DNA of 64,000 nucleotides from Mobula birostris (Eukaryota): NCBI RefSeq assembly GCF_030028105.1, contig NC_092386.1:24899721-24963720 (forward strand), written 5' to 3'. Every line of letters starts with the position of its first letter. The first letter of the stretch is position 1. Positions 33,504 through 64,000 of the stretch are shown here, one piece after another. The notes under the pieces are model-generated. The model searched no databases and had not been told where the DNA came from. It saw only the letters and a program-made list of their open reading frames with translations. The translations under genes and the position numbers were made by a program.

Positions 33504-33735
33504 GAGTCCCGATGAAGGGTCTCGGCCCCAAACGTCGACTGTCTACTCTTTTCCACAGATATACTCACAACACGCTGGAGGAGCTCAGCAAGTCGGACAG
33601 CATCTGTGGAAACGATGAGTTGACGTTTTGGGCCGGAACTCTTCATCAGGACTGATGAGTCGATGTTTCGGGCCGGAACCCTTCTGCCTAGATGCTGCCT
33701 GGCCTGCTGAGCTCCTCCAGCATTTTGTGTGTGTT
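33504..33735. mobile_element. Two Penelope-like terminal fragments nested in opposite orientation
   Basis: Outer + copy 33504-33560 plus 33689-33735; inner - copy 33561-33684. Confidence 0.8.
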
Positions 33736-34269
33736 TCTCAGGGATGAGGACGATCAGTGCTGGCACACTGCACCAGCCAGTCTCAGTTGGTACTGCCTGT
33801 CATTAGGGAGCAGAGTTCAATGGTCGTCCCTTCACTGACTGCATACTCAAATCAGTTCTGAGCTGTGTACTGTCATCACTGGACTGACACCTTAAAATGG
33901 CCAGAGGTCTTGTACAACACTGGCCTTGGTCAGACCACATCAACAGATGGAGCCAGCCCAGGCCACTGGAGCCTTTTGTGCAGCTTCACTGAGACACCCA
34001 TGGAGAGGGTTCTCTTTCCAGCAGTCAACACGGCATCTATGAACCCTGTATGGAGCTCCTGATGGAACCCAGATCCCATTTCAGTGCTGGACTTTGGATA
34101 TAACATGTAAATTGTACATTTTTTCTCTCCTGCAGGCATCGGCGCTATCTGCAACATGTGTTCAGCACAATTAAAGTGGTTGAAATCTAACTTCTAGGCA
34201 GATCTTTCCATGTACAGAGAGGAAAATAATTTGTCCCTGAATTATACACCATTCATATCTATATTATCT

Positions 34270-36222
34270 GAAACAGGGGGTAAATCAGGTGCTTGAGGAG
34301 TATAAGAAGTGCAAGAAAATACTTAAGAAAGAAATCAGGAGGGCAAAAAGAAGACATGAGGTTGCCTTGGCAGTCAAAGTGAAGGATAATCCAAAGAGCA
34401 TTTACAAGTATATTAAGAGCAAAAGGATTGTAAGGGATAAAATTGGTCCTCTTGAAGATCAGAGTGGTCGGCTTTGTGCGGAACCAAAGGAAATGGGGGA
34501 GATCTTAAATAGGTTTTTTGCGTCTGTATTTACTAAGGAAGCTGGCATGAAATCTATGGAATTGAGGGAATCAAGTAGTGAGACCATGGAAACTGTACAG
34601 ATTGAAAAGGAGGAGGTCCTTGCTGTCTTGAGGAAAATTAAAGTGGATAAATCCCTGGGACCTGACAGAGTGTTCCCTTGGACCTTGAAGGAGACTAGTG
34701 TTGAAATTGCGGGAGCCCTGGCAGAAATATTTAAAATGTCGCTGTCTACGGGTGAAGTGCCGGAGGATTGGAGAGTGGCTCATGTTGTTCCGTTGTTTAA
34801 AAAAGGATCGAAAAGTAATCCGGGAAATTATAGGCCGGTGAGTTTAACGTCAGTAGTAGGTAAATTATTGGAGGGAGTACTAAGAGACAGAATCTACAAG
34901 CATTTGGATAGACAGGGGCTTATTAGGAAAAGTCAACATGGCTTTGTGCGTGGTAGGTCATGTTTGACCAATCTGTTGGAGTTTTTCGAGGAGGTTACCA
35001 GGAAAGTGGATGAAGGGAAGGCAGTGGATATTGTCTACATGGACTTCAGTAAGGCCTTTGACAAGGTCCCGCATGGAAGGTTAGTTAGGAAAATTCAGTC
35101 GCTAGGTATACATGGAGAGGTGGTAAATTGGATTAGACATTGGCTCGATGGAAGAAGCCAGAGAGTGGTGGTAGAAAATTGCTTCTCTGAGTGGAGGCCT
35201 GTGACTAGTGGTGTGCCACAGGGATCAGTGCTGGGTCCATTGTTATTTGTCATCTATATCAATGATCTGGATGATAATGTGGTAAATTGGATCAGCAAGT
35301 TTGCTGATGATACAAAGATTAGAGGTGTAGTAGACAGTGAGGAAGGTTTTCAGAGCCTGCAGAGGGACTTGGACCAGCTGGAAAAAAGGGCTGAAAAATG
35401 GCAGATGGAGTTTAATACTGACAAGTGTGAAGTATTGCACGTTGGAAGGACAAACCAACGTAGAACATACAGGGTTAATGGTAAGGCACTGAGGAGTGCA
35501 GTGGAACAGAGGGATCTGGGAATACAGATACAAAATTCCCTAAAAGTGTCATCACAGGTAGATAGGGTCGTAAAGAGAGCTTTTGGTACATTGGCCTTTA
35601 TTAATCAAAGTATTGAGTATAAGAGCCGGAATGTTATGATGGGGTTGTATAAGGCATTGGTGAGGCCGAATCTGGAGTATTGTGTTCAGTTTTGGTCACC
35701 AAATTACAGGAAGGATATAAATAAGGTTGAAAGAGTGCAGAGAGGGTTTACAAGGATGCTGCTGGGACTTGAGAAACTCAGTTACAGAGAAAGGTTGAAT
35801 AGGTTAGGACTTTATTCCCTGGAGCGTAGAAGAATGAGGGGAGATTTGATAGAGGTATATAAAATTATGATGGGTATAGATAGAGTGAATGCAAGCAGGC
35901 TTTTTCCACTGAGGCTAGGGGAGAAAAAAACCAGAGGACATGGGTTAAGTGTGAGGGGGGAAAAGTTTAAAGGGAACATTAGGGGTGGCTTCTTCACACA
36001 GAGAGTGGTGGGAGTATGGAATGAGCTGCCAGACGAGATGGTAAATGCGGGTTCCTTTTTAACATTTAAGAATAAATTGGACAGATACATGGATGGGAGG
36101 TGTATGGAGGGATATGGTCCGTGTGCAGGTCAGTGGGACTAGGCAGAAAATGGTTCGGCATAGCCAAGAAGGGCCAAAGGGCCTGTTTCTGTGCTGTAGT
36201 TTCTGTGGTTCTATGGTTCTAT
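34270..36222 (+). mobile_element. Young 5'-truncated CR1 LINE
   Basis: Uninterrupted RT frame, 3' tail TTTCTGTGGTTCTATGGTTCT; near-identical to 14695-16645 inverted. Confidence 0.97.
34289..36142 (+). CDS. CR1 ORF2 reverse transcriptase frame (617 aa, lacks APE, begins at GTG; probably not expressed)
   Basis: NYRPVSLTS, YMDFSKAFDKVPH, GVPQGSVLGPLLF, KFADDTK, DLGI motifs. Confidence 0.8.
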   Translation: MLEEYKKCKKILKKEIRRAKRRHEVALAVKVKDNPKSIYKYIKSKRIVRDKIGPLEDQSGRLCAEPKEMGEILNRFFASVFTKEAGMKSMELRESSSETMETVQIEKEEVLAVLRKIKVDKSLGPDRVFPWTLKETSVEIAGALAEIFKMSLSTGEVPEDWRVAHVVPLFKKGSKSNPGNYRPVSLTSVVGKLLEGVLRDRIYKHLDRQGLIRKSQHGFVRGRSCLTNLLEFFEEVTRKVDEGKAVDIVYMDFSKAFDKVPHGRLVRKIQSLGIHGEVVNWIRHWLDGRSQRVVVENCFSEWRPVTSGVPQGSVLGPLLFVIYINDLDDNVVNWISKFADDTKIRGVVDSEEGFQSLQRDLDQLEKRAEKWQMEFNTDKCEVLHVGRTNQRRTYRVNGKALRSAVEQRDLGIQIQNSLKVSSQVDRVVKRAFGTLAFINQSIEYKSRNVMMGLYKALVRPNLEYCVQFWSPNYRKDINKVERVQRGFTRMLLGLEKLSYRERLNRLGLYSLERRRMRGDLIEVYKIMMGIDRVNASRLFPLRLGEKKTRGHGLSVRGEKFKGNIRGGFFTQRVVGVWNELPDEMVNAGSFLTFKNKLDRYMDGRCMEGYGPCAGQWD

Positions 36223-40342: not shown

Positions 40343-41204
40343 AAAAGTTCTATTCAAAAGGTTCAAAGGAAATCTAAACAAGCCTGATGTATGTTTGAAA
40401 CAAGTCCTGTGGACTGATGAAGTTAAAATAGAACTTTTTGGCCGCAACGAGCAAAGGTATGTTTGGAGAAAAAAGGGTGCAGAATTTCATGAAAAGAACT
40501 CCTCTCCAACTGTTAAGCATGGGGTGGATCGATCATGCTTTGGGCTTGTGTTGCAGCCTGTGGCATGGGGAACATTTACTGGTAGAGGGAAGAATGAATT
40601 CAATTAAATACCAGCAAATTCTGGAAGCAAACATCCAACCTTCTGTAAAAAAGCTGAAAATGAAGATGGAAAGAGGATGGCTTCTACAACACGATAATGA
40701 TCCTAAACACACCTCAAAATCTACAATGCACTACCTCAAGAGGCGCAAGCTGAAGGTTTTGCCATGGCCCTCACAGTCCCCTGACCTAAACATCATTGAA
40801 AATCTGTGGATAGACCTCAAAAGAACAGTGCATGCAAGACGACCCAAGAACCTCACAGAACTAGAAGCCTCTTGCAAGGAAGAATGGGTGAAAATCCCCC
40901 AAACAAGAATTGCAAGACTCTTAGCTGGCTACAGAAAGCGTTTATAAGCTGTGATACTTGCCAAAGGGGGTGTTACTAAGTACCGACCATGCAGGGTGCC
41001 CAAACTTTTGCTTCGGCCCCTTTTCCTTTTTTGTTATTTTGAAACTGTAAAAGATGGAAATAAAAAGGTTTTCTTGCTTAAAATATTAAAGAAACGTGTC
41101 TTCTTTAACTTTATGCCTTTTGGAAATCAGTTCATCTTTTATTTGCTTAGCTATTCACAGTAAAAAATTTTGACCAGGGGTGCCCTAACTTTTGCATGCC
41201 ACTG
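40343..41204 (+). mobile_element. Tc1 (DD34E) transposon, right half with IR/DR-type right end
   Basis: LWTDE..IELFG, QHDNDPKH, SPDLNIIENLW (34 residues between D and E); GGGTGCCC.AACTTTTGC repeated at ~40994 and ~41178; ends CCACTG|TA. Confidence 0.93.
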
Positions 41205-42322
41205 TATGTCACCATATACAACTCTGAGATTCATTCTCTTGTAGGCTTTCACAGTAAATACAAGAAATACAATAGAATCAAAGAAGGACTGCACCCAACA
41301 GGATGGACAAACAACCAAAGTGTCAAAGACAACAAACTGCAAATACAAAAAACTATAATAAGAAATAAATGAGCAATAAATACCAAAAACAGGAGATGAA
41401 GAGTCCTTCAAAGTGAGTCCATTGGATGTGTGAACTGTTTAGTGATGGGGTGAGTGAAGTTGAGTGAAGTTCTCCCCCATGAATCAAGAAGCTGATTGTT
41501 GAGGGTTACTAACTGTTCCTGAATCTGGTAGTGAGAGTCCTGATGTTCCTGCACCTTTTTTCCTGATGGCAACAGTGAGAAGAGAGCATGACCTGGGTGA
41601 TGGGTGCTGGTTTCCTGCGACAGCCCTGCTTATAGATGTTCTCAATGATGGGGAAGGCTTTACCCATGATAGACTGGGCTGTATCCACTACTTTTCGTTG
41701 GAGTTTCTGTCCAAGAGCATTGGCGTTTCCATACCAGGCAGTGACGCAATCAGTCAACATACTCTCTACTGCACATCTATAGAAGTTCGTTAAAGTTTTT
41801 GATGTCATGCTGAGTCCTCACAGACTTCAAAGGAAGTAGAAGCATGGCCATGCTTTATTCATAATTGCACTGATGTACTGTGCCCAGGACAGGTCCTCTG
41901 AAATGATAACACTGAGGAGCTTAAACTTGTTGACCTTCTCCACCTCTGATTGCCTGATGAGGACTGGCTTCTGGACCTCCAGTTTCCTCCTCCTGTAGTC
42001 AATGATCAGCTCCTTGGTCTTGCTGACATTGAGAGAGAGGTTGTTGTTGTGACACCACTCAGTCAAATGTTCAAACTCCTTCCTATATGCTGATTTGTCA
42101 CCACCTTTGATAACAGTGGTGTTGTCAGCAAGTTTAAATATGGCATTGGAGCTGTGCTTAGCCACACAGTCACAAGTGTAAATTGAGTAGAGCAGTGGGC
42201 TAACACACAGCCTTGTGATGCAGCTGTGCTGATGGTGATTGGGGAGGAGGTGTTGTCACCAATCCAAACTGAATGCGATCTACAAGTGAGGAAATTGAGG
42301 ATCCAATTGCGCGAGGAGGTAT
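41205..42322 (-). mobile_element. Rex1/Babar-like LINE 3' part
   Basis: ORFs FKLADNTTV..WCHNNNLSLNVSKTKELIIDYR, LTNFYRCAVESMLT..AWYGN. Confidence 0.88.
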
Positions 42323-45724: not shown

Positions 45725-46945
45725 CACCATCCTGGCAATTCTCGACAATGTTCCTCAACCCCTTGGCTGAACAGAGGAGCACTTTTAGTAAAACACTAAG
45801 ACAAATGTGCTGCTCTGAAGAGCACTCCATGAGGTCATTCCCACCCTTAGCCATTAAGCTCTATAATGAGTCAACCTATAGCTGGGGAAGTGACAACCCC
45901 ATTGTGTTAGACCATTTGAGGTAACTTACTTTTTGTTTTTTCTTTCTTCTTTTCTAATATCTGTATATCTGTGCATTTGTAATGCTACTGTAATAATTTC
46001 CTTTGGGATCAATACCATATCTATCTGTCTATCTATCTATCTACAACACTCTCTTACTCAATGTCAGCAAGATCAGGGAGCTGATTATTGACCAGTCAGA
46101 GGAAACCAGAGGTCCATGATCCATTCCTCATCAGATGACCAAAGGTGAGAGGGTCAGCAATTTTAAATTCTTCGGTGTTTTTATTTCGCAGAACCTCTCC
46201 TTGGCCCGGCACCTAAGTGGAATTATGAAGAAAGCACGGCAGCATCTCTATTTCCTCAGTAGTTTACAAAGATTCGGCATGCCATCCGAAATTTTGACAA
46301 ACTTCTATAGAAGTGTAGTGGAAAGTATATTGACTGGCTGCACAGCGCCTGGTATGGGAACACCAATGCCCTTGAATAGAAAATCCTACAAAAAGTAGTG
46401 GACATGGTCCACTCCATCACGGGTCAAGCTGTCTTCTTCATTGAGCACATCTACATAAAACGTTGCCTCAGGAAGGCAGCATACACCATCAGGGACCCCA
46501 CCACCGATGTCATACTCTCTTCTCACTGCTGTCATCAGGAGGAAGGTACAGGAGCCTCAGGACTCACACCACCCGGGTCAGGAACAGTTATTATCCCTCA
46601 ACCATCAGGCTCTTGAACCAAAGGGATAACTTCACTCATTTTCACTTGCCCCATCATTGAACTGTTCTCACAACCTATGGACTCACTTTCAAGGACTTTT
46701 CATCTTATTTCTTGATAATGATTTCTCATTGATTTATTATTATTATTATTATTATTTCTTCTTGTATTTGCACAGTTTTTTGTCTTTTGCTCATTGGTTG
46801 AATGCCCGAGTTGATGCAGTCTTTCATTGATTCTATTATGGTTATTATTCTATTCTGAATTTATTGAGTATACAGACAAGAAAATGAATCTCAGGGTTAT
46901 ATATGCTGACATGTGTGTACGTTGATAATAAATTTACTTTGAACT
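45725..46945 (+). mobile_element. LINE 3' end with (CTAT)n tail (45725-46042) followed by Rex1/Babar-like 3' part (46043-46945)
   Basis: ORF ERVSNFKFFGVFIS..KKARQHLYFL..LTNFYRSVVESILTGC; tail ATAATAAATTTACTTTGAAC. Confidence 0.82.
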
Positions 46946-47231
46946 TTTGCCTTTGTATGTGTTGACTTAAAATGTTATACTCCAGACCTCCAGACATAAG
47001 ACTGCTATAATGTTAGATTATGCCTTACCCACGACATTGCCATTTTGGAGTGGCCATTATCGGGAGAGATGGGTTTCACCTGAGTAGGGTGTTTGAATAA
47101 GTGCTTTGCCTCATTAGGCTTCAGGAAGAGAAGATTAAACATAGGAAGGAAACAAGTAAGGTTTGATATTTTCATTTTAACTTTTCTATTTAGAATGAAA
47201 GTATTTCGGATGCGTCTTACAGCAGTGGTAT

Positions 47232-50200
47232 GTGCTATGCATTGTAGCTCCATAAACTAATTGAAAGAAAAACCTATGAGCCAGGAATATTCATGGACTT
47301 AATTTTTCTTTAGTGAGGCCAGTATACTACATAGTATATATACTAAATAGATATTCACAGCATAGTAAATTTTAAGTTGTCTCATTCAGGCCTAAAAATT
47401 TAGTTGCATGGAGGATTTCTTACTCTTGTGGGACAAGGGGGATCACTCTGCTTGGCAGGTGAGACTTGTGGCTGTGGAACAATCTCAGGCTCTGGGGCTT
47501 CCTCTGTGGTGGTTGCAATAGTTAACTCTGGGACTGCAGGAGGTAGTTCTGACAGGTCTGGACACCTTTCTTCTCTTAGAAATGACTCTGCTCTCCTTAA
47601 CTGATCGATGTGTTGTCTCCACTGTGAGGAGAGTGGTTCCAATTCTGTCCTTAATCTTTCCAAATACCCACTTTTGATCACTTCTGCAGTTGCTCTCCAA
47701 GGCTGTTTGTCCAGGATTGAAAAGTCGAACGAATGTCCCTGACTGAGGAGCCCTCAGTTTGTCCCAGCTGATTGTCCCGCATACCCCTCTGACATTGTGA
47801 TTTAGGAGGTCCAAATGTGAGTGCAGGGGGTGACCCAGGAACAGCATAACTGGTGAGTTGTTAGTTTTGGGGTGTGCTGCATTGCCATATGCAAGGAGGA
47901 AATTGGTAAGCTTTTGATTCAGTTTTAGTGTAGAGTGTTCAGCTGATGTTCTTTGAAATACATTTTTTAGACTCTGGACAAATCTTTCCATCAAACCATT
48001 TGTAGCTGGGTGGTATGTTGCAGATGTAATATGTCTTATTCTGTTCATTTTCAAAAATGACTGAAACTGTTCCACAACCTGCTGTGGTCCATTGTCACTG
48101 ACTAAGTGTTCTGGAACACCAGTCCTTGAGAAGAGGCTTCTCAAAACATGGACAGTGTGCAAGGCTGTAGTGGAGTCTGCTAGGAACATTTCAGGCCATT
48201 TTGTAGGTGCATCAACTATTACCAAGGAATTTGTGCCCATGAATATTCCAGCAAAATCCAATGAATCCTCTGCCAGAGCAATGCAGACCATTCTCAGGGA
48301 TAGAGAGTCGCTGCTCTTGACATCTTTTCGACGTGATGACATCTCGAACCGTACATGGTGAGCTGCTCGATCAGCTGATATATCCCGGGCCACCAGAGAA
48401 AGTTTCGCGCCAATGCTTTCATTTTGACCACGCCTAGATGACCGGCGTGTAGGTCCTCCAACACCTTAGCTCTCAGCTTGGATGGTACAACACCTCTCAA
48501 TCCCTGCGTAAGGCAACACCCCTGTTAACGGCAAGTTCATCCCTGCGCTGGTAAAAAATGGTGGGACTGGAGCTTCTGCTGCACACTTCAGCCAGTTTGG
48601 GTTGCCATGTAGGTTTAAGACAGTGTGGGGTCTTTTCTGGGTTTCCTTTGGATCATCTCTACCATAATAGGGAGACTTTTGATTTGCATTAGGGAGAATA
48701 CTTCAACAGGAGTGTCCTCCTTTGTAAATTTTTCAGGTATTTCATTTTCTAAGGGTAAACGGGACAATCACCTGCATTTCCATGATTAGTTGTCCTCTTG
48801 AATTTGATCTTGTGATTGTGTCCTCCAAGATAAAGAGCCCATCTCTGCACTTGTGCATCTGCTGTTGAGGAGCTCTCTTCTGTGGATTGAAAATGGACTC
48901 TTGTTGCTGATGGTCAGTAATAAGGATAAAGTCTCTTCCACACAGGTACTGATTGAAACATTTTACACCCTAAACCAGACTCAAGGCCTCTCTGTCAACC
49001 TGTGCATAACTTTTCTCTGCAGCAGTAAGGGAACATGATGTAAAAGTATGTGGCGTTCACTTCCATCACTCATATGTGACATGAATGCACTATACCATAA
49101 GGCGAGATGTCACTGGACAATGTGGATCATAACATGTAAGTGCAATGTCTGATGTCACCATTTCCTTTGCCTTTTGGAAAGCTATCTCACACTGATTTGT
49201 CCATTGCCGTTTCTTTCTGACCTGTAGTAATCTGTTCAAGGCGTGGAGCTCAGTAGCTAGGTTTGGCAGGAACCTTTTATAATAATTGGCAGTCCTAAAA
49301 AGGACCACAGCCGTGACATGTCTGTTGGCCTTGGGTTATCCACCACTGCTCGAATTTTCTTATCAGACTTGTGTAATACTTGTGCGCCAATGTTGTGACC
49401 ACAGTAAGTGATGCATGGATTTCAAGAATTCACACTTGTAGTGTTGTGCTCTGAGCCCATAATCTTCTAATCTTTTTAACACTGTCTTGAGATGTTGGGG
49501 ATGTTCTTTGTTACACTTACCAGTAACTATCATGTCATCCAGGTAAAACTGAATGCCTGGGGAACCTTGCAGCACCTAGTCGATAACTTTCTGCCAGAGT
49601 GCTGGAGCAGATGCTACTCCCAAAATAAGCCTATTATAGCGATAAAGCGATTTCTGAGCATTTATGGTGAGAAACACTTTGGATTCTTCTTCCATCTCCA
49701 ACTGTAGGTAGTCCTCAGCTAAGTCTGCTTTGTCAAAGTGTTTTCCTCCTGAGCGGTTTGCAAAGATATCATCTATCCTGGGCAATGGGTATTAATCTAC
49801 TTTCAGTACTGTGTTGGTGGTAACCTTAAAATCATCAGAGATCCTGACAGACTCATCCTTATTGGCTACTGGGATCACTGGTGTTGTCCATGGTCTCCAG
49901 ACAACCCTGGAAAGAATTCCCTCAGCTTCCTTACGATCTAGCACACTGAATTCTTCATCATGGATGGTATATAGAACTGCTCAGGCTTTGTAAAACTTGG
50001 GTGTGGCATTTTCATTTAATATTATTTTATCTTTGCTATATTTGAGTTGTCCAATGCCATTCTTGAACATTGCTGTGGCATCATTCAGTACCTTTCTTAG
50101 TTCACTTTCAGTTGACTCTATTGCAGGAGATGTGACCTACAAATGATGGATGGATCTCCAATCAATTTGCAGTGGTCTCAGCCAATGTTGGGCCTCCTGT

Positions 50201-51450
50201 TTGTATCACATACAAGCCTTATTTGGTTTGTTGACTGTTGTTTTTCACTATTATGAATGTCATTCCCACAGGAAGCTATCTTCTCTCCATTATATCTTCT
50301 TAGTTGGATAATGCAGGCTTCAGTTCAGTATCTTTGAAATGTTGTTCAAACTCATTTTGTGGAATGTAGGAGACAGCGGAGCCAGTGTCCAATTCCATTT
50401 TAAGTAATTTGCCATTCACTTCTGGTGTAAGCATGTTGTTTGTTTCCTTTTAGTTTTCACATTGTAAATCTCAAGGTTACTCAGTACTGTGTCACTGATC
50501 ATTATCAGATTTTTTCATCAACAGTATGCAAATTACTGCTCTTTTTGCAACTGCACCTTGACTTCTTATCTTTATTTCTTCCCTGTGCAGTCCATTTATT
50601 TTTGTCTGCCTGACATGTTCTTCATATGTGTCTACTTTGTTGCATTTTCTACAAATTTCACCTTTACGTTTGCATCAGTCTGGTGTATGAGAGCCCCCGC
50701 CATAACAATAGCACAATTTGTTCAGACAGGCAGTTTTCTGTTTAGATGTTTCAATTTTGTTCTCGCTGTGCCATTCCTGACTGCAACTCAGTTGCCCCTC
50801 TGACTGGTGCTTCCATTGATACAGCAATTTCAACTGCTCTTTTAAATGTGAATCTTGCCTCAGTTAGGAAATATATTTGAATGCTTTATGTAAGATTCCA
50901 TGAACTAAACAATCCCCCAGTACATCAGAAAGTCCATCACTGAACTGGCAATGCTTGGACAATTTCTTCATATCAGTCACATAAGCTGAACAGGACTCCT
51001 CTTCCCTTTGATTCAGCTTATGAAACCTAAAGTGTTCTGCAAGCAACAATGGTTTTGGTTCTAAGTATACCTGCATCACGTTCACAATATCAGCAAAGTT
51101 CATTTTTGGCTGGTTTGTTTGGAGCAGTTAATCTTCTAAGTAAACTCTATGCTCCTCCACAAATTGCACTCAGCAAAGCGGGCATTCATTTCTCATCGCC
51201 GATTCCATTTGCTTTAAAGTACTGCTTAATTCATTCAGTATACATCAGTTAGTTATCCCTTGTGCGATTGAACACATCTATCCTTCCAATACAGCTACCG
51301 ATTTCTGCTTGCTTATTTATTTATTTATTTAGTATTACCACCTGGTACTCACTGGATATGAAGCTGTGAATTTTATCCATTTTGTGCCTTTTTAAACCTA
51401 GCTGAATCTGTCCTTTCCCAAAGAACAGATGGTATTTCTTTAACTTGAAC

Positions 51451-51505
<55 letters not shown>

Positions 51506-51827
51506 CCCTTGCGAAAAGAAAACTTGCTGCACTTTAACAGCAAGTAGTTGTCTCGGGTTTGTTTGAAAGCTACCCTGTTGCCATTGTTATATTTTGTAAC
51601 TCCATGAAAATTATCAAAAGAAAAACACAGGAGCTGTGGATTTTTTGTCAACTTCGTTTTTCTTTTAGTGAGGGGCTCACAGGTGGCGTAATAATGTATG
51701 CTATTCATGTACTTCTTACAGTACATATAATCCCTAATGAATTATGTAAACAAACAAGAATGCTTAATCAAACAATATATTTACCATTTTACTCAAACAT
51801 TATTGAAGTATTAAATAAACTACGGCA
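47232..51827 (-). mobile_element. Decayed Ty3/Gypsy LTR retrotransposon (gag, protease, RT, RNase H, integrase)
   Basis: Gag-like LEPKPLLLAEHFRFHK; protease MELDTG (~50381-50398); RT FYLDDMIVTG; integrase LHAGHLG, LVSDNGPQ, YHPATNGLMERFV; 5' LTR 51585-51827, PBS-like TGGCAACAGGG, partial 3' LTR ~47232-47320. Confidence 0.93.
51452..51505. repeat. (CT)n microsatellite in the Gypsy 5' leader
   Basis: Directly visible. Confidence 0.95.
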
Positions 51828-51859
51828 TACGCCTCCTACAGGGTGTGAGAGATCAAGGA

Positions 51860-52182
51860 GATTCCCAGGTGCCCATAAGGATTACACTTGTGGGGAGGTG
51901 CACCCAGATATTGTTCCTGGAACTAGTTTAGGACCTGTACATGGAGAGGGTGCAACTCTAGATCTCCTCATGGGGGGACGAGTTAGTGCATTTGTCTGTC
52001 AATGATCCAGTGACCATAATTCTACTAGTTTTAAAATAGTTATGGAGAAGGATATGATTGGCTTACAGGATGGGGTCATGAACTGTGGCAGAGCTAATTC
52101 TGGAAATATTAGGCAGGATCTTGTGGTGGTTCTTTGGGTGAGACTGTGTGCAGTGAAAGGAGAGTCTGCCATGCGGAAAGTC

Positions 52183-52186
<4 letters not shown>
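51860..52186 (+). mobile_element. CR1 APE-region fragment
   Basis: GAGGGTGCAACTCTAGATCTC..CAGTGACCATAATTCT (EGATLDL, SDHNS). Confidence 0.65.
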
Positions 52187-52238
<52 letters not shown>

Positions 52239-52244
52239 TATATA
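52187..52244. repeat. (TA)n(CA)n microsatellite
   Basis: Directly visible. Confidence 0.95.
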
Positions 52245-52699
52245 CTGTGCATAAGCAATTGGAAACTATTAACTCTCTGGCAAAACACACAAAATGCTAG
52301 AGGAATTTCAAGTTTAATTGCCGCGGTGGTAGATTTGGACTTGAACTCAGGTTTATGATGTGTTCTGGTTCTGTTTGGTCCTTTTTTTGTTGCTTTTTTG
52401 GGTGATTTTTTTTTGAGTCGGGGGGCCTGCGGATGATGAGCACTGAGCTAAGCTGAAATATGTCTTTTGATTTTGTGTTTTATATTCTCGCCTTTTTTGT
52501 TGCTGTTTGCGTGATTTCTTTTGCGTGCGAGGGGTGGGGAGGGAGGGGGTTTGACGTTTTTCTTTGAACGGGTTGGATAATGGTTCTTTGTTTCGAGCTG
52601 CATGTGGGGAAGACTAATTTCACAGTGTATTCTGCATACATACTTCAATTTCTGCATACATACTTCAAAGTGTACTTGAAAATAAATTTGAGTAAACCT

Positions 52700-53710
52700 C
52701 TTGGTGATCACAACAAGTATAGAAGTTCACTTGAGAAAGAAGTTATGAGGGCAAAACAAAAGCGTATAAGAATGATCTGACAGACAAGGTGAAGAAAATC
52801 CCAATATTCTATAGGTATATTAAAAGTAAAATGGTTAGGGAGACAATAGGCCCCCTTGAAGACCAGCATTGTGATCTGTATGTGGAACCAAAAGACATTG
52901 GAGAGATCTACTCCCCAGCCAACTGCATATTACAGACAAAAAGCAAGAATAGCTCCACACAGTTCATGTAGCAATTGAATACCATCTTTAAATTGAGGAC
53001 ATGTTTCATTGTATTGTGAGACGTCAATACCATACTAAGTGGATTTATTAGATTTGTAAGCTCAAAACTAGACACCTTTGCAGTGTTCAGCAGATTTGAT
53101 CAGCAGAATCAATTAGGTGAAATGTTATCAAGAGCAGAGTTGAGTTTTACTTGGAGGGTTGCCAAGATCTGGTGCAGGAAATGGCAAGGAAAACTTAAAT
53201 AGTTTTATTAGAATCATAGAGTCAGAGTTATACAGCAGGGAAAAAGGCCTTTCAGCTCAACTGGACCATGATAGCCAAGATGCTTCTTCCAAGCTAGTCC
53301 CATTTGCCAGCATTTGGCCTATATCCTTCCAAGTTCATCATGATTTCTTAACTTGTATACTGAATGCCCTTACTTGAAAAGGCCAACAAACCTTCTTCAC
53401 CATTCTGTCTACCTGTGAATCTATTTTCAGTGAATCATATACCTGTACTCCAAGGTTCTTCTGTTCAACAACACTTCCCTGGGTCCTGCTGTTCATTGTG
53501 AAAATCCTACTAAGATCTGACATATCAAAAAGCAACACCTTGCACTATCCGAATTAAACTCCATTTGCCATTCACTGGCCCACTTACCCAGCAGATTAAG
53601 ATCTCTCTTCATAATTTTTGATGACCTTCTTCATTGTCCACTACACCAAATCTTTGGTATCATACAAACTTACTAACCATGCCTGAACATTACTATCCAA
53701 GTGATCAATA
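52700..53710. mobile_element. CR1 fragments (52700-52908 +; 53210-53710 -)
   Basis: FYRYIKSK..IGPLEDQ; QKNLGVQVYDSLK..QVDRMVKK. Confidence 0.75.
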
Positions 53711-55304
53711 CCAATACTTGTGTAGTCCTACTAAATTATTTAATCAATGGCTGTCAATTAGCTTTTGCTGATTTTTAGGTATACTTCATCCCAAAGTCTA
53801 TCTGCTAATGCACTGATCTATTTTTCTTTAGTCTCATATGGATGGGTTACAAAGCAGATGGCCATCTTAATGCTATTAACAATACTGTATGTGAATCTCC
53901 AGTTCTTTTCAGTAAAGGAATGCGAACTGATGATCTTCTGCATTACAATGCTCCTGTCTCCCAATTTCACAATACGATTTAGACAGCTGAGCTTGCTTGG
54001 ACTGTTATAAAGAACATTATAATAGCAGATTTGGTTTAGTTTAAATTTATTACTCACAGGATCTAACAGTCTGAACTGTAAGTGCACCAGGAGACTCTTA
54101 CTGAAAATCAGAATTGCCAGTACATTCTCACGTGGTGACTATAACACTTTAGTGTGCAAAGGAGCCCAAAAATATCTATCTAAATAAAACTCACTCTATG
54201 ATAAGTTTATACTGAGATGAAGTATCCAATATTGCTTTATAATCTGGCGTTAAATTTCTTCCAAGCTTAAATTTCTAAAATATGGTTTTATTATCTGTTG
54301 TAATTCCAAAATTCACAAGATGAATCATTGGAGCCTTTCTTCCCGGAGAGGATATTGTTATTTACAATATTCGTAAGGAACCTGATTGCACAACAGGGTG
54401 ATAATCATACCAGTGACCGAGAAGAGTAGGGTGAGCTGCCTCAATGACTAATTCATAGTGGCACTCACAGTGTGATGAAATGCTTTGAGAGGTTGGCCAA
54501 GGCTAAGATCAACTCTTGCCTAAGCACGGACCTGAACTTGCTACAATTTGTCTATCACCATAATTGGTCTACAGTAGACACAATCTCTACTTGGGCTTGG
54601 ATCACCTGGACAACAATAATGCCTTCGTCAGGCTGCTGTTTATTGACTACAGCTCAGTGTTCAACGCACTCGTACCCTCAGTTCTAATCAATAAGCTCCA
54701 AAACATGGACCTCTGTAACTGACCCTGCAAATGGATCCTTGACTTTTTCACCAGAAGACCATAGTCTGTGGATCAGAAAGAACATCTCCTCCTTGATGAC
54801 AATCAACACTGGTGCACTTCATGGATGTGTGCTTAGCCCACTGCTCTACTCTCTCTACACCCATGACTGTGTGGCTAGGCACAGCTCAAACGTCATCAAT
54901 AAATTTGCTGATGACACATCTATTATTGGCAGAATATCAGAGAGTGATGAGGAGGTGTACAGGAGCAAGACAGATCAGCTGGTTGAGTGGTTTCACAGCA
55001 ACAACCTTGCACTCAACATCAGTAAGACCAAGAAAATGATTGTGGACATCAGGAAGGGGAAGTCGAGGGGACACACGCCAGTCCTCATTGAGGGATCAGA
55101 AGTAGACAAGGTGGACAGATTCAAGTTTCTGGGTGTCAACATCTCAGAAGATCTATCCTAGGCCCAACATATTGATACAATTACAAAGAAGGTCCAACAG
55201 CAGATATATTTCGTTGGGAGTTTTAAGTAGAATTGGTATGTCACCAAAGACGTTCACAAATTTCTACAGATGAAGAAGTTTAACTAGGAAGCATTCTAAC
55301 TGGT

Positions 55305-55901
55305 GAAACATCGTGAAACCTGACGCAGATTGGGGGACCACTTCGTCGAGCACCTCCACTCTGTCCGCCACAACAGACAGGATCTCCTGGTAGCCAGCCA
55401 TTGCAACTCTGCTTCCCATTCCCATTCAGATATGTCCATACATGGCCTCCTTTACTGCCATGATGAGGCTAAACTCAGGTTGGAGGGGCAACACCTCATA
55501 TACCGTCTAGGTAGTCTCCAACCCCTTGAAGTGAACATAGAATTCTCCAACTTCCGATAATTTCCTCCCCTCCCTTCCTCTATCCCTATTTCACTCTGCC
55601 CCCTTCCCCAGCTGCCTATCACCTCCCTTATGGTTCCGCCTCCTTCTTCTACTACCCATTGTTTCCCTGCATATGATATCCCTGCTTCCCCTCCCCCACC
55701 CCTTTGCCTTTCAAATTACTGGTTTTTCAACTGAACCTACAAGCATTCTTCAAATCGTTCCCCCTCCTTCTTTCTTCAGTCCTGACGAAGGGTTCCGGCC
55801 CGAAATGTCGACTCATCATTTCCACTGATGCTGCCCGACCTGCTGAGTTCCTCCAGTGTGCTGTGAGTGTTGCTTTGATCCCAGCATCTGCAGATTATTT
55901 T
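55305..55901 (+). mobile_element. Penelope-like element 3' fragment (GIY-YIG remnant, UTR, hammerhead)
   Basis: ET*RRLGDHFVEH..HLIYRLGSLQPLEVNIEFSNFR; flanked by diverged direct repeats GCATTCTAACTGGT/GTATTCCAACTGAT. Confidence 0.9.
55777..55814 (+). ncRNA. Minimal type-I hammerhead ribozyme motif
   Basis: AGTC-CTGACGA-A-GGG(TTCCGG)CCC-GAAA-TG-TC|GACT: complete core, stem I, stem II, GUC site. Confidence 0.75.
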
Positions 55902-56399
55902 GTATTCCAACTGATTGCAGCACCACCTGGTACGGAGGGACCACTGCACAGGATTGAAAAAAGCTGCAGGAAGCAGTAAACTCAGCCAGTTGCATCATGG
56001 GCATTAGCCTCCCTAGCATTGAGGACACCTTTAAGGGGTGATGACCCAAAAAGGCGACATCTGTCATTAAGGACCCCATCACACAGGACATACCCTCTTC
56101 CCATTGCTACCATCCAGGAGCAGGTACAGCAGCCTGAAGACACACACTTAACGTTTCAGGAACAAATTCTTCCTCTCAGTTATCAGATTTCTGAATGGAC
56201 AATGAACCCACGAAGGCTTCCTCAGTATTTTTTTACCTCTCTTTTTGCACTACATATTGTAATATATAGTTTTTGTTGTGATATATTGCAGTGTTCTGCT
56301 ACTGAAAACCAATGAATTTCATGATATCTGCTAATGGTATTAAACCAGATTCTGATTCTGAACATCTAAGAGACAATGTATATTTAAACAATCTCCCTC

Positions 56400-56795
56400 A
56401 AAGGAAAATTGGCAGGTCAGCTTCTTTAAGCTATGCCCCTAAACTGTGGAACTTTAAGGGATGCAGCCTCAGTTGACACTTTTAAAGCTTATTTATTTAA
56501 CCCTACTTTTAACTAACATAATTTTGTCTTTTATTTTTATGTTTGCACTTTAATCCTTTGTAAACCACTTTGAACTACATCATTTTTATGAAAGTGCTCT
56601 ATAAACAAGTTATTATTATTGTTATATTCCTTTTGTACATTGGTTGTTTGTCCATTTGTGTTTGTGTGTAGATTTTCATTAATTCCATCGTGTTTCATTA
56701 TATCTATTATGAATGCCTGCAAGAAAATGAATCTCAGGTTAGTATATGGTGACATGCAATTACTTTGATAATAAATTTACTTTGAACTTTGAATA
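56400..56795 (+). mobile_element. L2-like 3' end with (TTA)n tail followed by a Rex1-like tail
   Basis: AAAGTGCTCTATAAACAAGTTATTATTATT; ATAAATTTACTTTGAACTTTGAA. Confidence 0.6.
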
Positions 56796-57477
56796 TTTGA
56801 GTACCCAATTTAAATGGACATTTATGCATTGCTTTCCTAGTATAAACACCTGTCACTGATCGGTACCTCAGCATACTGCTCATTTTGTACTGATGTTAAG
56901 CAGCTGACTTTATTCAGGAGACTGATGTTAGATTGGTCACACAGTCTTTGTACTGCTCTTGAACCACAATCAGCAGCCCGTGAAGGATATGACAATCTGC
57001 TCTTCAAATGCAGATTGATTCTCTCATTGGGTAAAGAACAAAGCAGTTTTAATTTCCCAGTTCCAATACAAATTGGCCAGGCAAGTCAGATGGCCATATT
57101 CACGGCATGAAGCCAGACAAAGGGAGAATCCAGAGAAAAAAGAATGCTCAAAGGACGGCATATCAAATTTTTGCAGTTTTTGTCTTGTTGTTTAGCTCAT
57201 TGATCAGCTTTACATTGCTGTAACATACAGTCCTTTTGGTTTCTATTGTTTACTGTCTAAGGGCTGGCCGAATAGTTCTGACGGTGTCACTAGCATCATA
57301 TTCCTTGATTCAAACGTGTATTTACAAACTGAAGCTTAATTAAATGATCCAGAATAACTGAGAAGTGTGTCCATTTGTTTAATGTTTTCTGAACTTTTGC
57401 AACTACTTCTTAATGCTGACCACTCTGCATGAATTAAACATCTCTGGTGTCAGCATTAATGTCGCCTTTCTTTAATA

Positions 57478-57720
57478 GGGGTAGCATGGTAGCATAGTGG
57501 TTAGCATAACAGTTTACAGTATGGGCAACCTGGGTTCAATCCCCACCGCTGCCTATAAGGAGTTTGTACGTTCTGCGTGTGACCACAAGGGTTTTCTCCG
57601 GGTGCTCCGGTTTCCTCCCATAGTCCAAAGACCTACCGGTTGGTAGGTTAATTGTAAATTGTCTTATGATTAGGCTAGAAATAAATGGGAATCGCTGAGT
57701 GGCGCAGCTCAAAGGACCAG
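57478..57720 (+). mobile_element. tRNA-derived V-SINE
   Basis: A box TAGCATAGTGG, B box GGTTCAATCCC, V-domain TCCGGGTGCTCCGGTTTCCTCCCATAGTCCAAAGAC. Confidence 0.85.
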
Positions 57721-57724
57721 ACCT

Positions 57725-58760
57725 TCACCCACTTACCCACTTGCTCTACGCTTATGACTGTGTGGCTAAGCAGAGCTCCAATACCATATTGGTTGCTGAT
57801 GCCACCGCTGTCGAATCAAAGGTGGTGGCAAATCAGCATATAGATGGAAGATTGAAAATCTGGCTGAGAGGTGCCACAACAACAACCTCTCACTCAATGT
57901 CAGCAAGACCAAAGAGCTGATTACTGTCTTCAGGAGGAGGAAACCAGAACTCCATGAGCCAGTCATCATTGGAAGATCAGAGGTGGAGAGGGTCAGCAAC
58001 TTTAAATTCCTTGGTGCTATCATTTCAGAGGACCTTTCCTGGGCCACACAAGAGCAATTATGAAGAAAGCATGGCAGCGTCTCTACTTCCTTAGGAGTTT
58101 GGGAAAATTTGGCATGACATCTAAAACTTTGACAAACTTCTATAGATGTGTAGTGGAGAGTATATTGACTGGCTGCATCACAGCCTGGTATGGAAACACC
58201 AACGCCTTTGAATGGAAAATCCGCTAAAAAAGTAATGGATATGGACCAGTCAATCCCCACCATTGACACATCTAGAGAAAATGCTGCCATAGGAAAGCAG
58301 CATCCATCATCAGGGACCCCCAGGACATGCTCTCTTCTCACTGCTTCCATCAGGAAGAAGGCATAGGAAACTCTGAACCCACACCACCAGGTTCAGGAAC
58401 AGTTATTATCCCTTAACCACCAGGCTCTGGAACCAAAGTTCTCTCAACTCCACTTGCCCCATCAATGACATGTTCCCACAACCTACAGACTCTCCTTCAA
58501 GGGCTCTTCATCTCAGGTTCTTGATATTTATTGCTTATTTATTGATTATTATTATTGTTATTTATTTTTGTATTTGCACAATTTGTTGTCTTTTGCAGAT
58601 GGTTTGAATGCCAAAGTTGGTGTGGTCTTTCATTGATTCTGCTATGGTTACTATTGTATGGATTTATTAAGTATGCCCACAAGGCAACAAATCTCAGGCT
58701 TGTAGGTAGTGACATATATATACTTTGATTACAAATTTACTTAGAAGTTTGAACTTTGAA
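57725..58760 (+). mobile_element. Rex1/Babar-like LINE 3' part
   Basis: CACAACAACAACCTCTCACTCAATGTCAGCAAGACCAAAGAGCTGATT; same UTR and tail as 46043-46945. Confidence 0.85.
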
Positions 58761-58902
58761 TGCCCTTGATGGCAGGTAGGCTGATGCTGGTGATGTGTTG
58801 GACAATTTTGACTACTCGTGGTAGAGCAAGGTTGTGTCATCTTCCCTTTCCTTTTTCTCTATCTTAAGATATACCGTCCTGTACAACGGTCTTATGCACG
58901 TG

Positions 58903-59375
58903 TACAGTATATATAGCCAGGGTGCCTAAGACTTCTCACAGTACTGTACTTGACGAGGTGGAGCAGCGAGGAAGTTCGTAGATCTGGTGGGAACGAAGGA
59001 TGTTGGGAATTGTGATGGTGGAGTGCTGTGGGAGTGGTGGTAAATATGGTGTGCCAGGGTAGGGTGCAGACACACCCAGTTCTGAGGCACCAGGCAAGAT
59101 TATTTGATTCCAGACAATTGGTTAATTGACCATTACAGAATGTCTCTCTGATGCTTCTCACTTCTCCCCACCTCTCCCTTCCCCTTTTACCAACCATGAT
59201 TCCCCTCTCCCTGCCCCCTTCTCACTCCCAGACCACAATAGAGACCCAGATCAGAATCAGGTTCATCATCGCTCACATAAGTCCTGACATTTGTTTTTTG
59301 TGCGACAGCTGTACAGTGTACTACATCACCGCCCTAGCTCTATATTCGTGGCTAAAACTTTTGCACAATGCAGTA
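58903..59375 (-). mobile_element. Composite Tc1-type MITE, third copy
   Basis: GGGTGCCTAAGACTTCTCACAGTACTG + shared cargo + CCCTAGCT..AACTTTTGCACA. Confidence 0.72.
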
Positions 59376-60724
59376 TTTCAAGCATTGATCAAGGCTCAAT
59401 GTCAGTGTAGTGCCTGTAGCTTTTCACATTTATTTTCTCTTTCTACACACAACAATAGAGCCTTGTTTCTGAAAAGTTTTGCATCTGATGCTGCCATCCC
59501 GTTGGCTGGGATTGTAGCTGCTCACTTAACTTTTAAGTGTTTTCAGTGTGATTAAATTGTCAAAGTTAGCAGTGAGGGAAATAACTTATGAGACTTGAGT
59601 GACGGAGCAAACCAAAGCACCTTATATCTCCTTCACAGATCAGACTGAGGATTAAGAAGATTATTCTGAGAACAAAATTTGGATTAAGTGAAGTCAATTT
59701 AAAATCAGGTGAATATATGCCTAGAAATCGTAACTGATCAATTCTGAGTGTGCTAAGCAAGTACATTAAACGAGTGTATTAACACAAAATCGGATTGTAG
59801 CTCCTACATACAACAGATCTATTGCCAAAAAGAACTGCAAGAGTTGGCCTTATGTACAATAAAATGGCACCACAGTGGTTCATGTGCTAAAATGAGGCCT
59901 GGATTGTTTTCCAATGGCACTGCCCAGAAAACTCCCAACTACTGTATCTTTGATAGGGTCAGTGGTAGGAATGGCTTCAGGGATTAAAGGAATTCCCTCT
60001 GTGGAGATATTGATTTCTGAGTCTGATTCTGAACAGCACTATTACTGGCTGTGAGGGTGGTGAGAGAAAATGTAGGGGGGGTGTGGTTTGTAGAGACACA
60101 GGAATTTTAACTATGTGTGGGGTCTCCAAGATGAGCACCCATCCTAACTGAGTCATGTGTGAGGAAAGTCTCTGTACCACTGTGAAGGTAAGGGTCATCA
60201 CTGAACAAGGTCACAGCATGCAGTTCTGATATCCATTATACACACAGTATCATTTCTGTGATGGAACATTTAGTGACAAGGTTTCAAATAAGCTCAGCAT
60301 TGAAAATAGTGATTGGACTGTCAGAATGGAAACCCTTTAATTGACATGTCCTTGACAATCGCATTGTATTATGTTTCTATAATGTTTCTGACTTTTCAAT
60401 AAAGGTTGTGGGTTCTACCTAAAGTTCCAATTTAATGTTGGTGTGGGAGGAAATATCTAGTGTGGAACTTGTGACTGATTAGTGAGTGAACGGTGCAGTA
60501 GAAACATCAGGTGAATTATACAAATTCTCCATTTCACCCTAAAATGACCATCTGTATAATCTGACTCAGCTAAACAACTGTTATACTTGACTTGTGCAGT
60601 TATGAAAAATGAGGGCTGATAGATTTGATTTCTAAATCAGAGAGGTTGCATTGAAACAGAGAAAGGAATAGACAAAATAAAACTTAAAAAAGATGACATT
60701 TCCAACAAGTAAAATCCGGAAGAT

Positions 60725-61815
60725 GTTTTTTCTTTCGTTTTTGAGATACTGATGTCTTAGGCAAGTCCAGGATTTATTGTTCATTACTAACTGCCTATGG
60801 GAAAGTGGTGGTGAATTGCCTATTTGAACTGCTGTAGTCTTACTGATGGTGATACTCCCACAATGCATTGCAGAAGGAATGCCAGAATTTGGAACCATTC
60901 ATGCCATTGGACTAACTATATCAGGATGGCTTGTGGCTTGGAAAGGAGCCTGCAGCTGGCAGTGTTCTAATGCACCTGCTACCCTTGCCCATATGGTAAA
61001 GGTTGCAAGGCTTGGCAAGTACTATTACAGTAGCCTGGGTGAGTAACTGCAGTGCATGTTATAGACTTCACCCTAGAGCTGGGATTGAATGCTTAGGGCG
61101 GCTTTTTGTGAATTGTTGGAACTGCACTCATGCAGGCAAGTGAAAAGGATTTCTGTCCTGACCCTGACTTTTGCCTTTGAGCTGGCCTTAACTCTTTGGG
61201 GTCTCAGGTGGCTGCTTGAGAACAGGAGTCCCAGAACTGCTCTTGCAGCCAGGATACTTATGTGGCTGGTCTAGCTGAGTTGGTTAATGGTGATCCCAGG
61301 ATATCGATAGTGAGATCCCGAGCAACATTAATGCCAAGGGTATGTTGTTTAATTTTTCATTCTCATATTGTATTTCAAATTAAGTCTTCTGGGTCTTGCT
61401 GCTTCATTTGCTGAGGAAATGTGAAAGAAATCAAGCACTGAGTGAGCATTATCTAGCATCTCCATTTCTGATCTTATGATGCAGGAAAGAATCATGGCTG
61501 AAATAATTAAAGATGGTTAGGACATTGCCCTAAGGAACTCTTGTATGAGATTCTGGGGCTGGAATAATTGACCTTTGACAACTTTACAACCATCACCTTT
61601 TGTTTGAAATATGATTCCAGCTACTGGAGAGTTTTCACTTTGATGTTCATTGCCTTCAGCGTCACCAGGGTATCACATTCATCAAATGGGAAAGAGTCGT
61701 AACTCATTTCAGGAATTAATCCCATTGATCCAAGTTTGGGTTAAGGCTGTGATAAAGTCCAGAGGGGAGAATCCCTGTCAAAATCCCAAACTGGGAATTG
61801 GTGAGCAGGTTATTG
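60725..61815 (-). mobile_element. Ancient LINE (CR1/L2-group) remnant
   Basis: Degenerate LINE-like sequence (TGGTGATCCCAGGATATCGATAG, also seen at ~2770-2810); family uncertain. Confidence 0.45.
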
Positions 61816-61821
61816 GTGATT

Positions 61822-61955
61822 TAAGTCCAGCTGAAGGGTCTTGGCCCAAAAGGTTGGCTCTGTATTTCTCTCCATAGCTGCTGCCTGGCCTGCTGTCTCC
61901 AGCATTTTGAGGGTGTTGCTCTGGATTTCCAGCATCTGCAGAATCTCTTGTGTGT
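61822..61955 (+). mobile_element. Penelope-like terminal fragment
   Basis: CTGAAGGGTCTTGGCCCAAAA..GCTGCCTGGCCTGCTG..TTCCAGCATCTGCAG. Confidence 0.7.
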
Positions 61956-62959
61956 TGATGATTAAGTTCTATTCATTAACACCACTGTATTGAAAACAGT
62001 TTCCATCACCTTGCTGAATTGGATTGTGACTTGTATTTGCTAACTTTCAGAACCAGAAACATTGTCAAACAGTTACGACACATGCAATACTATGGAAAGG
62101 GTACTTTGACAGAAATGGACAACTCTTCACTTTCAGTGGTAGGAATCGCTGGCTCCTATTGTGTGAGTACTATTTCACACTGCTCTGTGTTGAGCAATGC
62201 TGAGGCAAACAGCAAGTTGCAGTTTTAACAAAGATAACAACAGAGCCACACAACGTGAGCTGCAGTGTTCGATTATTTGCTTTTAACCACGTGTCTGTCT
62301 CTTGCCAGTTGTCGGGACGCTGTTTCCTCATAAATAACAGTGAGTGCTATTAGCTTCTCAGTTACTTTGACAGGGAAATATGGGCTAAAATAAATCTTAT
62401 TTGAGTAAAGCTTTTAAATTTGGTCCTCTGGGGGCATTTCTGCAAACCCTTCTGGAGGCCATGAGGAGGATTTTGTTGGAGGTAGCAAGAAAAAGATTCT
62501 GTCATTAGATCAGGTTAAAAGTTGCTGAGTCCTGCTAAAAAAATGTTACACATACAGACTGCAGGCCTAACCTTTAGCTCACATTTTTACTGTCCTGTGC
62601 AAAAATATCAAAAATATCAATCTTAAACCATTGGGAGAAGTTATGAAAATTATGGAGATTATACTGATTTAAATATTTCTTGCAGACACAATAAAAGTTT
62701 ACTGAATGAACAAAGTTAGATGGAAATATCTAGGGGGAAAACGCAACTTGAGTGATTGTGTGTTGCTTGGATTGCCAGCATCTGCAGATTTTCTTGTGTT
62801 TGTGATTAGAACTTCAGTGATTCATTTGTTTCAGCAATAATATTGCAATCAGTTGACCAAAGGGAAATTGAAAGTGTACGTTGGGATTTATAATGTGAAA
62901 CGCTGACACAGAATTGTGGCAAGCATGGTAGCAATGGAAAACTTCCACAAACTAGGTTC

Positions 62960-63215
62960 ATTTATTTATTGAGACACAGTGTGAATAGGCCCTTCGAGCC
63001 ATGCCGCCCAGCAAACCCCCCATATTTAATACCAGTCTAATCACGGGACAATTTACAGTGGCCTATTAATCTACCAGATGGGGCATTTTTGGACTGTGGG
63101 AGAAAACAGAGCACCTGGAGGAAATCCACATGGTCACAAGGAGATCGTACAAACTCCTTGCAGGCAGTGGTGGGAACAACCAGTATGCTACCTTGCCACC
63201 AACTGTGATCACGCT
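62960..63215 (-). mobile_element. V-SINE copy
   Basis: GGACTGTGGGAGAAAACAGAGCACCTGGAGGAAATCCAC..CGTACAAACTCCTT. Confidence 0.75.
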
Positions 63216-63789
63216 ATATCAGAAGAACATCCATATGGAGGGGATATGATTTTTTTTACTGAATAGTGGGTAAATGGACTATAGAATGAATTCTCTAGAT
63301 TGCTTTTTAAAAATTTATTATAAATTGTGTAATATTACAGTATGTTCATTTAAAAAAAAACAACACCATGCTTGGCAGAACAACACAGAACTGAACACCA
63401 CAAGCAACTAAACAGCAGCAAAATAAGCTTGATACCATCACAAGAAGACAGGACAAGTCCAACCCGTCAGATTACTGTCCGATTAATCTTCTTTTGATCA
63501 TGAGCAAAGTGATGGAAGGAGAATCAATGGTGCTGTCGAGCTGCTCTGCCTTCGTGACAACCTGGTGACAGAAGCCTTAGTCCAAACATCAGCAAAATAG
63601 TGAATTCCAAAGGTGAAGGGAGAGTAACTACCCTCAGGATGTCAAAGTTTATGGGGAGAAGGCGGGAGAAGGACGTTGAGAGGGATAATAAATCAGCCAT
63701 GATGGAATGACAAAGCAGATTCGATGGGCTGAGTGGCCTAATTCTGTTCCTATGTGACCACTGACTATCGACCAGTGACATTAGATATA

Positions 63790-64000
63790 GATTAGATTTG
63801 GATTCAGATTTATTTATCACATGTACATCGAAACACACAGTGAAATGCATCATTTTCTTTAACAACCTACACACCTAAAGGTGTGCTGAGGGCAGCCCGC
63901 GAATGCCGCTACACATTCTGGAACTAATGAAGCATGCCCACCATGCTTGGCAGGACAACGCAGAACTGAACACCACAAGCAACTAAACAGCAACAAAATA
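63790..64000 (-). mobile_element. Non-autonomous retroelement 3' part (runs off the window)
   Basis: Inverted homologue of 8920-9075. Confidence 0.6.

Follow-up and report, generated by a model that had tools for sequence, protein, structure and literature searches.

In a 64,000-nt stretch of the Mobula birostris genome (contig NC_092386.1, hereafter the window), the motif at 55778-55813 is very probably a minimal type-I hammerhead ribozyme in the 3' pseudo-LTR (pLTR) of a 5'-truncated, Neptune-type Penelope-like element (PLE). In the parent element, cleavage after GUC likely requires a dimer and is likely helped by the element's own protein; this lone copy (the window copy) is probably inactive, a fossil in neutral decay. 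The motif is a real, decayed member of a kind published in 2014, and we do not claim the family as undescribed. As one decayed instance of that class, the single copy matters little. Its family offers a practical system for testing the role of PLE hammerheads, with dated copies in the tens of thousands: these indicate that the motif was under selection in the master lineages, and their ends bear no footprint of cleavage. The absence of a footprint agrees with the 2024 finding (PMC11167929) that uncut RNA serves as the template.

The element occupies 55308-55903 and is nested within a LINE (Table 1). Two sister loci are collinear across the insertion junction. The truncation at 55308 removed the 5' pLTR, and with it the element's own promoter region. 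What is left of the endonuclease has a premature stop (55321-55323) ahead of the normal stop (55558-55560), and these 77 amino acids alone gave no Pfam match. The 3' ends of 97 sister copies fall into two clusters, at 55862-55880 and at 55903-55906, which are about 35 nt apart and correspond to the optional PLE tail; the window copy has the tail. The probable target-site duplication starts with ATT, which is described as the preferred cutting motif of PAc, a Poseidon PLE from the lizard Anolis (PMC11167929, in part). No host gene was found among the long frames scanned (22 of the 32 in the window, and one more), which encode transposon domains or nothing. The other transposon frames in the window (34241-36142, 14898-15791, 25827-26399, 41827-42255, 47485-48465, and 40432-40947) comprise four reverse transcriptase (RT) fragments, an integrase core, and a DDE_3 endonuclease.

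Table 1. Features of the element, its hammerhead motif, and the insertion site (window coordinates).
Feature	Position	Strand	Basis or remark
Host LINE-type RT fragment, target of the PLE insertion; resumes past 55903	54688..55292	+	RVT_1, E = 4e-11
Left copy of probable 12-bp target-site duplication	55293..55304	+	10/12 letters match the right copy
C-terminal remnant of PLE GIY-YIG endonuclease	55308..55560	+	Translation; longer sisters ~91% identical where their ORF ends
Pyrimidine-rich 3' UTR part of pLTR	55561..55777	+	77% pyrimidine; 90% in last 20 nt
Stem I, 5' arm, AGUC (AGTC in DNA)	55778..55781	+	Sequence; base-paired to 55810-55813 when folded
Core box C3-U4-G5-A6-N7(C)-G8-A9 (CTGACGA), intact	55782..55788	+	Sequence
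Extra A between A9 and G10.1	55789	+	Sequence; a listed trait of PLE minimal hammerheads (PMC4209133, in part)
Stem II, GGGU/GCCC (G10.1-C11.1) with 4-nt UCCG loop; DNA GGG-TTCCGG-CCC	55790..55801	+	Fold, subfamilies
Core box G12-A13-A14-A15.1 (GAAA), intact	55802..55805	+	Sequence
Loop-less stem III segment AUGU (TG at 55806-55807)	55805..55808	+	Most of the family has palindromic ACGU
Predicted cut site GUC|G (C17 / G1.1), 55809/55810; TC at 55808-55809	55809..55810	+	Hammerhead consensus
Stem I, 3' arm, GACU (GACT in DNA)	55810..55813	+	Sequence, fold
Rest of pLTR 3' of the ribozyme, with optional ~35-nt PLE tail from about 55870	55814..55903	+	
Right copy of probable 12-bp target-site duplication	55904..55915	+	

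Searching the genome (4.0 Gb), whose repeats seem to be of a cartilaginous-fish type, gave 10,639 first-look candidates; 40 of these were scored, and the 39 best, the window element itself aside, share 91-93% identity with it. The ORF of longer sisters matches RVT_1 (E = 3e-8) and, more weakly, GIY-YIG (E = 0.005, below the Pfam cut-off, plus motifs), and all of the sisters seen have frame breaks in this ORF. Between the RT and the endonuclease lies a CX2-5CxxC linker (CKRKCYTC, or CX3CxxC, in locus L062). As for the CCHH endonuclease motif, the CxxC inside GIY-YIG is found in L061 and L103 and is mutated in L062, and EH..HF is present. At the sister loci, the hammerhead is located in the PLE pLTRs: two of the seven long loci fetched (L103 and L104) are pLTR-ORF-pLTR partial tandems with two hammerheads in direct orientation, 3538 and 3487 nt apart. 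In a set of 30 copies spanning the 5' junction of the ORF, 15 have the whole hammerhead directly upstream, and 29 have an ATG, the likely start codon, ~135 nt past the cut site. Inverted copies were found at 10 of the 12 loci fetched around close opposite-strand pairs.

An RT followed by a CX2-5CxxC linker and a GIY-YIG endonuclease is the layout given for Neptune and Nematis in the relevant sections of Craig et al. 2021 (PMC8557442). According to those sections, Neptune-clade EN+ PLEs share with our family this layout, the C-terminal position of a GIY-YIG domain with an internal CxxC and two histidines, and also the partial tandems, the inverted truncated copies, and the 30-40 bp tail. All of these habits (partial tandem and inverted insertions, and an optional tail) are seen here, although the window copy is merely a 600-bp 3' remnant. 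In contrast, Poseidon is described as missing the zinc-finger motif of the linker. By its motifs, rather than by a tree, the element appears to be a Neptune-type EN+ PLE; the linker is common to Nematis as well. We also considered a non-LTR retrozyme. As outlined in a preprint (bioRxiv 10.64898/2026.07.22.740005), which includes PLE-derived hammerhead repeats from one chondrichthyan, animal retrozymes likewise have a type-I hammerhead derived from a PLE pLTR, but they consist of tandemly repeated units that each contain a hammerhead. We rejected this identity, as tandem units with complete hammerheads are absent and this locus instead has the end of one truncated PLE, which retains endonuclease codons and is flanked by a probable target-site duplication.

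The motif has the layout of a type-I hammerhead: it is closed by stem I, stem II is a hairpin with G10.1-C11.1, and both core boxes and a UH cut site are present. Cleavage after GUC, between C17 and G1.1, is the consensus placement for hammerheads. An earlier note, made from these letters, had identified a minimal type-I hammerhead in a PLE, and this is supported by the sequence, by the domains of the sister ORFs, and by the layout of the sister pLTRs; the letters and positions it gave for the hammerhead all agree with the window sequence. Some details need revision. Stem II pairs as described, but the predicted fold has 4 bp instead of 3, closed by U.G around a UCCG loop. The note's span of 55777-55814 is right for the inner letters, but its outermost pair is a C.C mismatch, also in the subfamily. 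The palindromic ACGT that it ascribed to sister copies is found in just 3 of the 10 other copies in the window (4 of the 10 have ATGT); family-wide, C is the majority letter at 55806 (80/92 copies in one set and 25/30 in another). In the window copy, a CpG-type C>T change at 55806 disrupts the palindrome, leaving UG at 55806-55807, which can self-pair through two wobbles only. At the family level, positions 15.2-16.2 are palindromic without a loop 3, with CG as the majority in all five subfamilies described below.

Cervera and De la Pena reported minimal hammerheads in the pLTRs of metazoan PLEs in 2014 (PMC4209133). The traits set out in the portion of that report on these ribozymes include the type-I arrangement, a loop-less stem III, a palindrome at 15.2-16.2 (kept by our family, lost in the window copy), a short stem I, an extra base between 9 and 10.1, and G10.1-C11.1, as well as presence in both pLTRs of full elements and thousands of solo copies from truncated ones; all are shared with our family. 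All four of the traits listed in 2014 are present at the family level, except for covariation. The predicted stem II has 4 bp here, versus the 7-8 bp given for Schistosoma. For Xenopus tropicalis, about 9,000 are reported in the published counts; perfect copies alone are more numerous here, with 12,572.

That number comes from a pattern search of the genome that required an unaltered core, the inner stems, and ACGT. With ATGT in place of ACGT, the defect of the window copy, the pattern matches 2,120 sites, or 14% of otherwise perfect copies; the two classes together make over 14,000 near-perfect copies. The 14% share equals the CpG decay rate. To quantify decay, we used 97 copies that were chosen by their downstream sequence alone; they came from 360 pattern matches, of which the first 100 were taken. 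Of the 76 that span the motif, 38 retain the core, 27 the core and stems, and 22 the palindrome as well. Core positions in CpG context (G8, G12, and C17) are mutated in 46 of 226 cells (20%), versus 173 of 968 (18%) for CpG positions outside (p = 0.39). At non-CpG core positions, 15 of 681 cells are mutated (2.2%), which is less than in all outside columns (1127/23950, or 4.7%; p = 0.001) but the outside value falls to 3.2% once subfamily-polymorphic columns are removed (p = 0.15). The window copy differs from the column majority at 23 of 499 outside positions (4.6%, versus a sister median of 5.0%) and ranks 26th of 61. Since the core is lost at the background rate and the window copy is in the middle of the ranking, we infer that the copies decay near-neutrally and that this one is of average age.

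Comparison of subfamilies gives a different picture. Among 315 downstream-anchored sites, 265 have a hammerhead-like stretch (up to 14 mismatches, which gives a mild bias towards conservation). After dropping 24 motif-picked sites and excluding 17 unassigned ones, we obtained five subfamilies (A1, A2, A3, B, and C) with 146, 25, 17, 18, and 18 copies. All five have the same majority letter at the 12 core columns, in the pairs of stem II, and in the CG palindrome. The CUGANGA box is unchanged save at N7, and the extra A at 55789 is the majority letter in five of five. The changes between subfamilies are at N7, at two loop bases, at the outer positions of stem I, and at one stem I base. One subfamily has an A.C mismatch in stem I. 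Constrained columns changed in 1 of 30 cases, versus 5 of 8 for free columns (N7, the two loop bases, and outer stem I; p = 0.0006, for a grouping that was made post hoc). For the core versus all other motif columns, p = 0.08. No compensatory double change was seen in the stems across the five subfamilies. The earlier note had proposed that a lack of excess conservation in the core, along with no cleavage in Mg2+, would count against it; there is no excess among copies, but the constrained positions are kept across subfamilies. Catalytic bases disappear from individual copies as fast as the background, while subfamilies keep the core and stems; this pattern is consistent with purifying selection on master elements, not on individual copies.

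Two other explanations for particular letters were rejected. Compensation of 55806 C>T by 55818 G>A showed no association (p = 0.78; 138 of the 146 A1 copies have those letters). And although the reading frame is open through the motif in subfamily A, a coding role is inconsistent with the length of the 3' spacer, which varies among subfamilies (12, 14, or 16 nt) and breaks the frame between them.

Instead of cutting, the motif might be kept mainly as a signal in the pLTR for protein binding, splicing, or translation, with cleavage being vestigial. Copy 5' ends show no pile-up at the predicted cut site: no copy starts exactly there among the 97 anchored copies or the 30 ORF-junction copies, and genome-wide junction patterns number 3, 0, and 2 at 55810, 55811, and 55812 (p = 0.21). 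The three junctions at 55810 are one clean start with a 14-bp duplication, one fold-back, and one internal insertion. Also, catalytic mutants of the lizard element are reported to have had no effect on insertion in vitro, and stem I opens with YAG after a pyrimidine run. Against this, the columns that vary between subfamilies are those that a hammerhead leaves free, including N7, and the lizard motif is reported to cut and to show C3/G8 rescue (PMC11167929). Nor was any genomic copy found to be spliced from the candidate donor, which lies at the ORF stop: the gap pattern from this donor to stem I has one genomic match, which is not a precise splice. We consider the signal explanation unlikely. 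The clean start is in the centre of L194, where an insertion of ~55 bp begins at the predicted cut site between 14-bp duplications; this single case could reflect a cleaved template or chance.

At 55760-55779, the pyrimidine run and CAG end inside the 5' arm of stem I. This tract resembles the intron end of the Penelope element of Drosophila virilis, which was mapped to helix I according to a passage in PMC4209133. The whole UTR of the pLTR is pyrimidine-rich, not just the tract before stem I. Subfamily A3 retains the A of this CAG although it is unpaired there. In eight contig runs, whose kind is uncertain, at most 0.16 of the words were present. Five of these eight were compared to a full-length sister and to 46000-64000 of the window, and they covered repeats only, in which ends cannot show. 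The candidate splice acceptor was absent among the joints listed for these contigs of uncertain kind (15 of 48 and 15 of 639).

Our preferred reading remains a family ribozyme that likely works as a dimer. Without loop 3, two copies are needed to form stem III, as argued in PMC4209133, where monomers are described as inactive and dimers as weak. We propose that two copies on a tandem transcript would pair their ACGU palindromes to form stem III, with one strand providing CUGANGA, stem II, and GAAA, and the other providing GUC|GACU. For a copy on its own, the prediction is an off state, with G5-A6-C7-G8 paired to 15.2-17: the lone copy folds as a rod with this pairing (-10.8 versus -8.5 kcal/mol). 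By a nearest-neighbour model that excludes the tertiary core, dimer folds have energies of -15.9 kcal/mol for two sisters with ACGU, -14.1 for the window copy with a sister, and -11.6 for the window copy with itself, so the loss of the palindrome costs +1.8 to +4.3 kcal/mol in stem III of the dimer. Cleavage at the 5' copy, upstream of the likely start codon, would trim or release the element's RNA. Given that the ribozyme is whole in inserted copies, such cleavage probably happens seldom or late. The PAc hammerhead offers a parallel: as summarized in Frangieh et al. 2024 (PMC11167929), its cleavage requires the element's protein, the template is mainly uncut RNA, and no reads end at the site. 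Both families have a pLTR hammerhead upstream of the tail that is kept uncut in copies, without ends at the cut site. However, the start codon of PAc is at stem II, whereas ours is probably well past the cut site, with spacers that break the frame between subfamilies.

The earlier note had also judged the window copy to be the most likely to be still active. If transcribed, it might work by cutting with a partner in trans or with the PLE protein. Of the 11 copies in the window, 3 keep both core boxes and 1 also keeps stems I and II. That copy is the one at 55778-55813, so it is indeed the most intact, and it is the only one to pass the full descriptor (both boxes, a 4-bp stem I, a 3-bp stem II, and a UH site). 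With both boxes and these stems intact, and with an ACGU partner leaving one U.G wobble in stem III, our model allows that some cutting in trans may be possible; the heterodimer penalty is just 1.8 kcal/mol, and every perfect copy in the genome is a possible partner. However, the copy lacks the 5' pLTR and promoter region. On the plus strand, the window has four more copies, all with damaged cores, so there is no same-strand partner with an intact core within the window, and none could be the catalytic strand in cis; the copy at 33504 could be a substrate. In a context of 171 nt, stem I has a pairing probability of 0.03, and GAAAUG is held by a downstream CAUUUC at 0.39. Furthermore, intact minimal hammerheads are weak even as dimers in cis, by the assays described in PMC4209133, and only one of nine frog retrozyme dimers was cleaved, with no product from the other eight, in the account of the preprint (10.64898/2026.07.22.740005). 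We give little credence to a working copy. The claim of activity is not supported: the palindrome has a CpG transition, the divergence of 4.6% is ordinary, an intact same-strand partner is lacking, and 12,572 copies are better. The window copy is special within the window, narrowly (1 of 11), and not in the genome.

More elaborately, the family ribozyme could be a locked switch, held shut both by pairing between G5-G8 and the cut site and by a hairpin that covers GAAA, and unlocked by the PLE protein or through splicing at the stem I YAG; given more than 12,500 perfect copies, those that are transcribed, the window copy included, could then pair in trans and cut host pre-mRNAs in which a copy is present. 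We regard this as highly improbable. At 55802-55822, GAAA(C/U)G can pair with a downstream C(G/A)UUUC, which could hide the second core box; this pairing is perfect in subfamilies A1 and A2 and only partial in A3, B, and C.

As for a chance resemblance, the two core boxes by themselves are at chance level in the window, with 9 matches versus 7.2 expected (29 of 100 shuffles reach 9), and the folding energy of the motif is ordinary (z = -0.68). A scan of the window against Rfam (E up to 5) gave no hammerhead match and four chance matches, which means that the models miss this form at that threshold, and nothing more. In contrast, the full descriptor has one match in the whole window, at 55778-55813, and none in 200 dinucleotide shuffles. 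Given this result, the fixed position of the motif in the pLTR, the pLTR-ORF-pLTR arrangement of sisters, the conservation across subfamilies, and the agreement of the extra base at 9/10.1, G10.1-C11.1, and the palindromic 15.2-16.2 with the class as published (PMC4209133, in part), chance is almost certainly not the explanation.

Other arrangements of the hammerhead were seen. On the minus strand of L180 (700-1420), eight head-to-tail units of 56 nt contain the catalytic half (the 5' arm of stem I, both boxes, and ACGU) and are followed by one complete copy; such an array could supply a partner in cis. In the window, the plus-strand copy at 33504-33541 faces a minus-strand tandem duplication of the motif (40 nt; 33617-33694), and these three cores are damaged or incomplete. 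In several copies (for instance, L113, L154, L161, L056, L039, and L195), the sequence switches to the opposite strand within the hammerhead, folding back at short stretches that are self-complementary.
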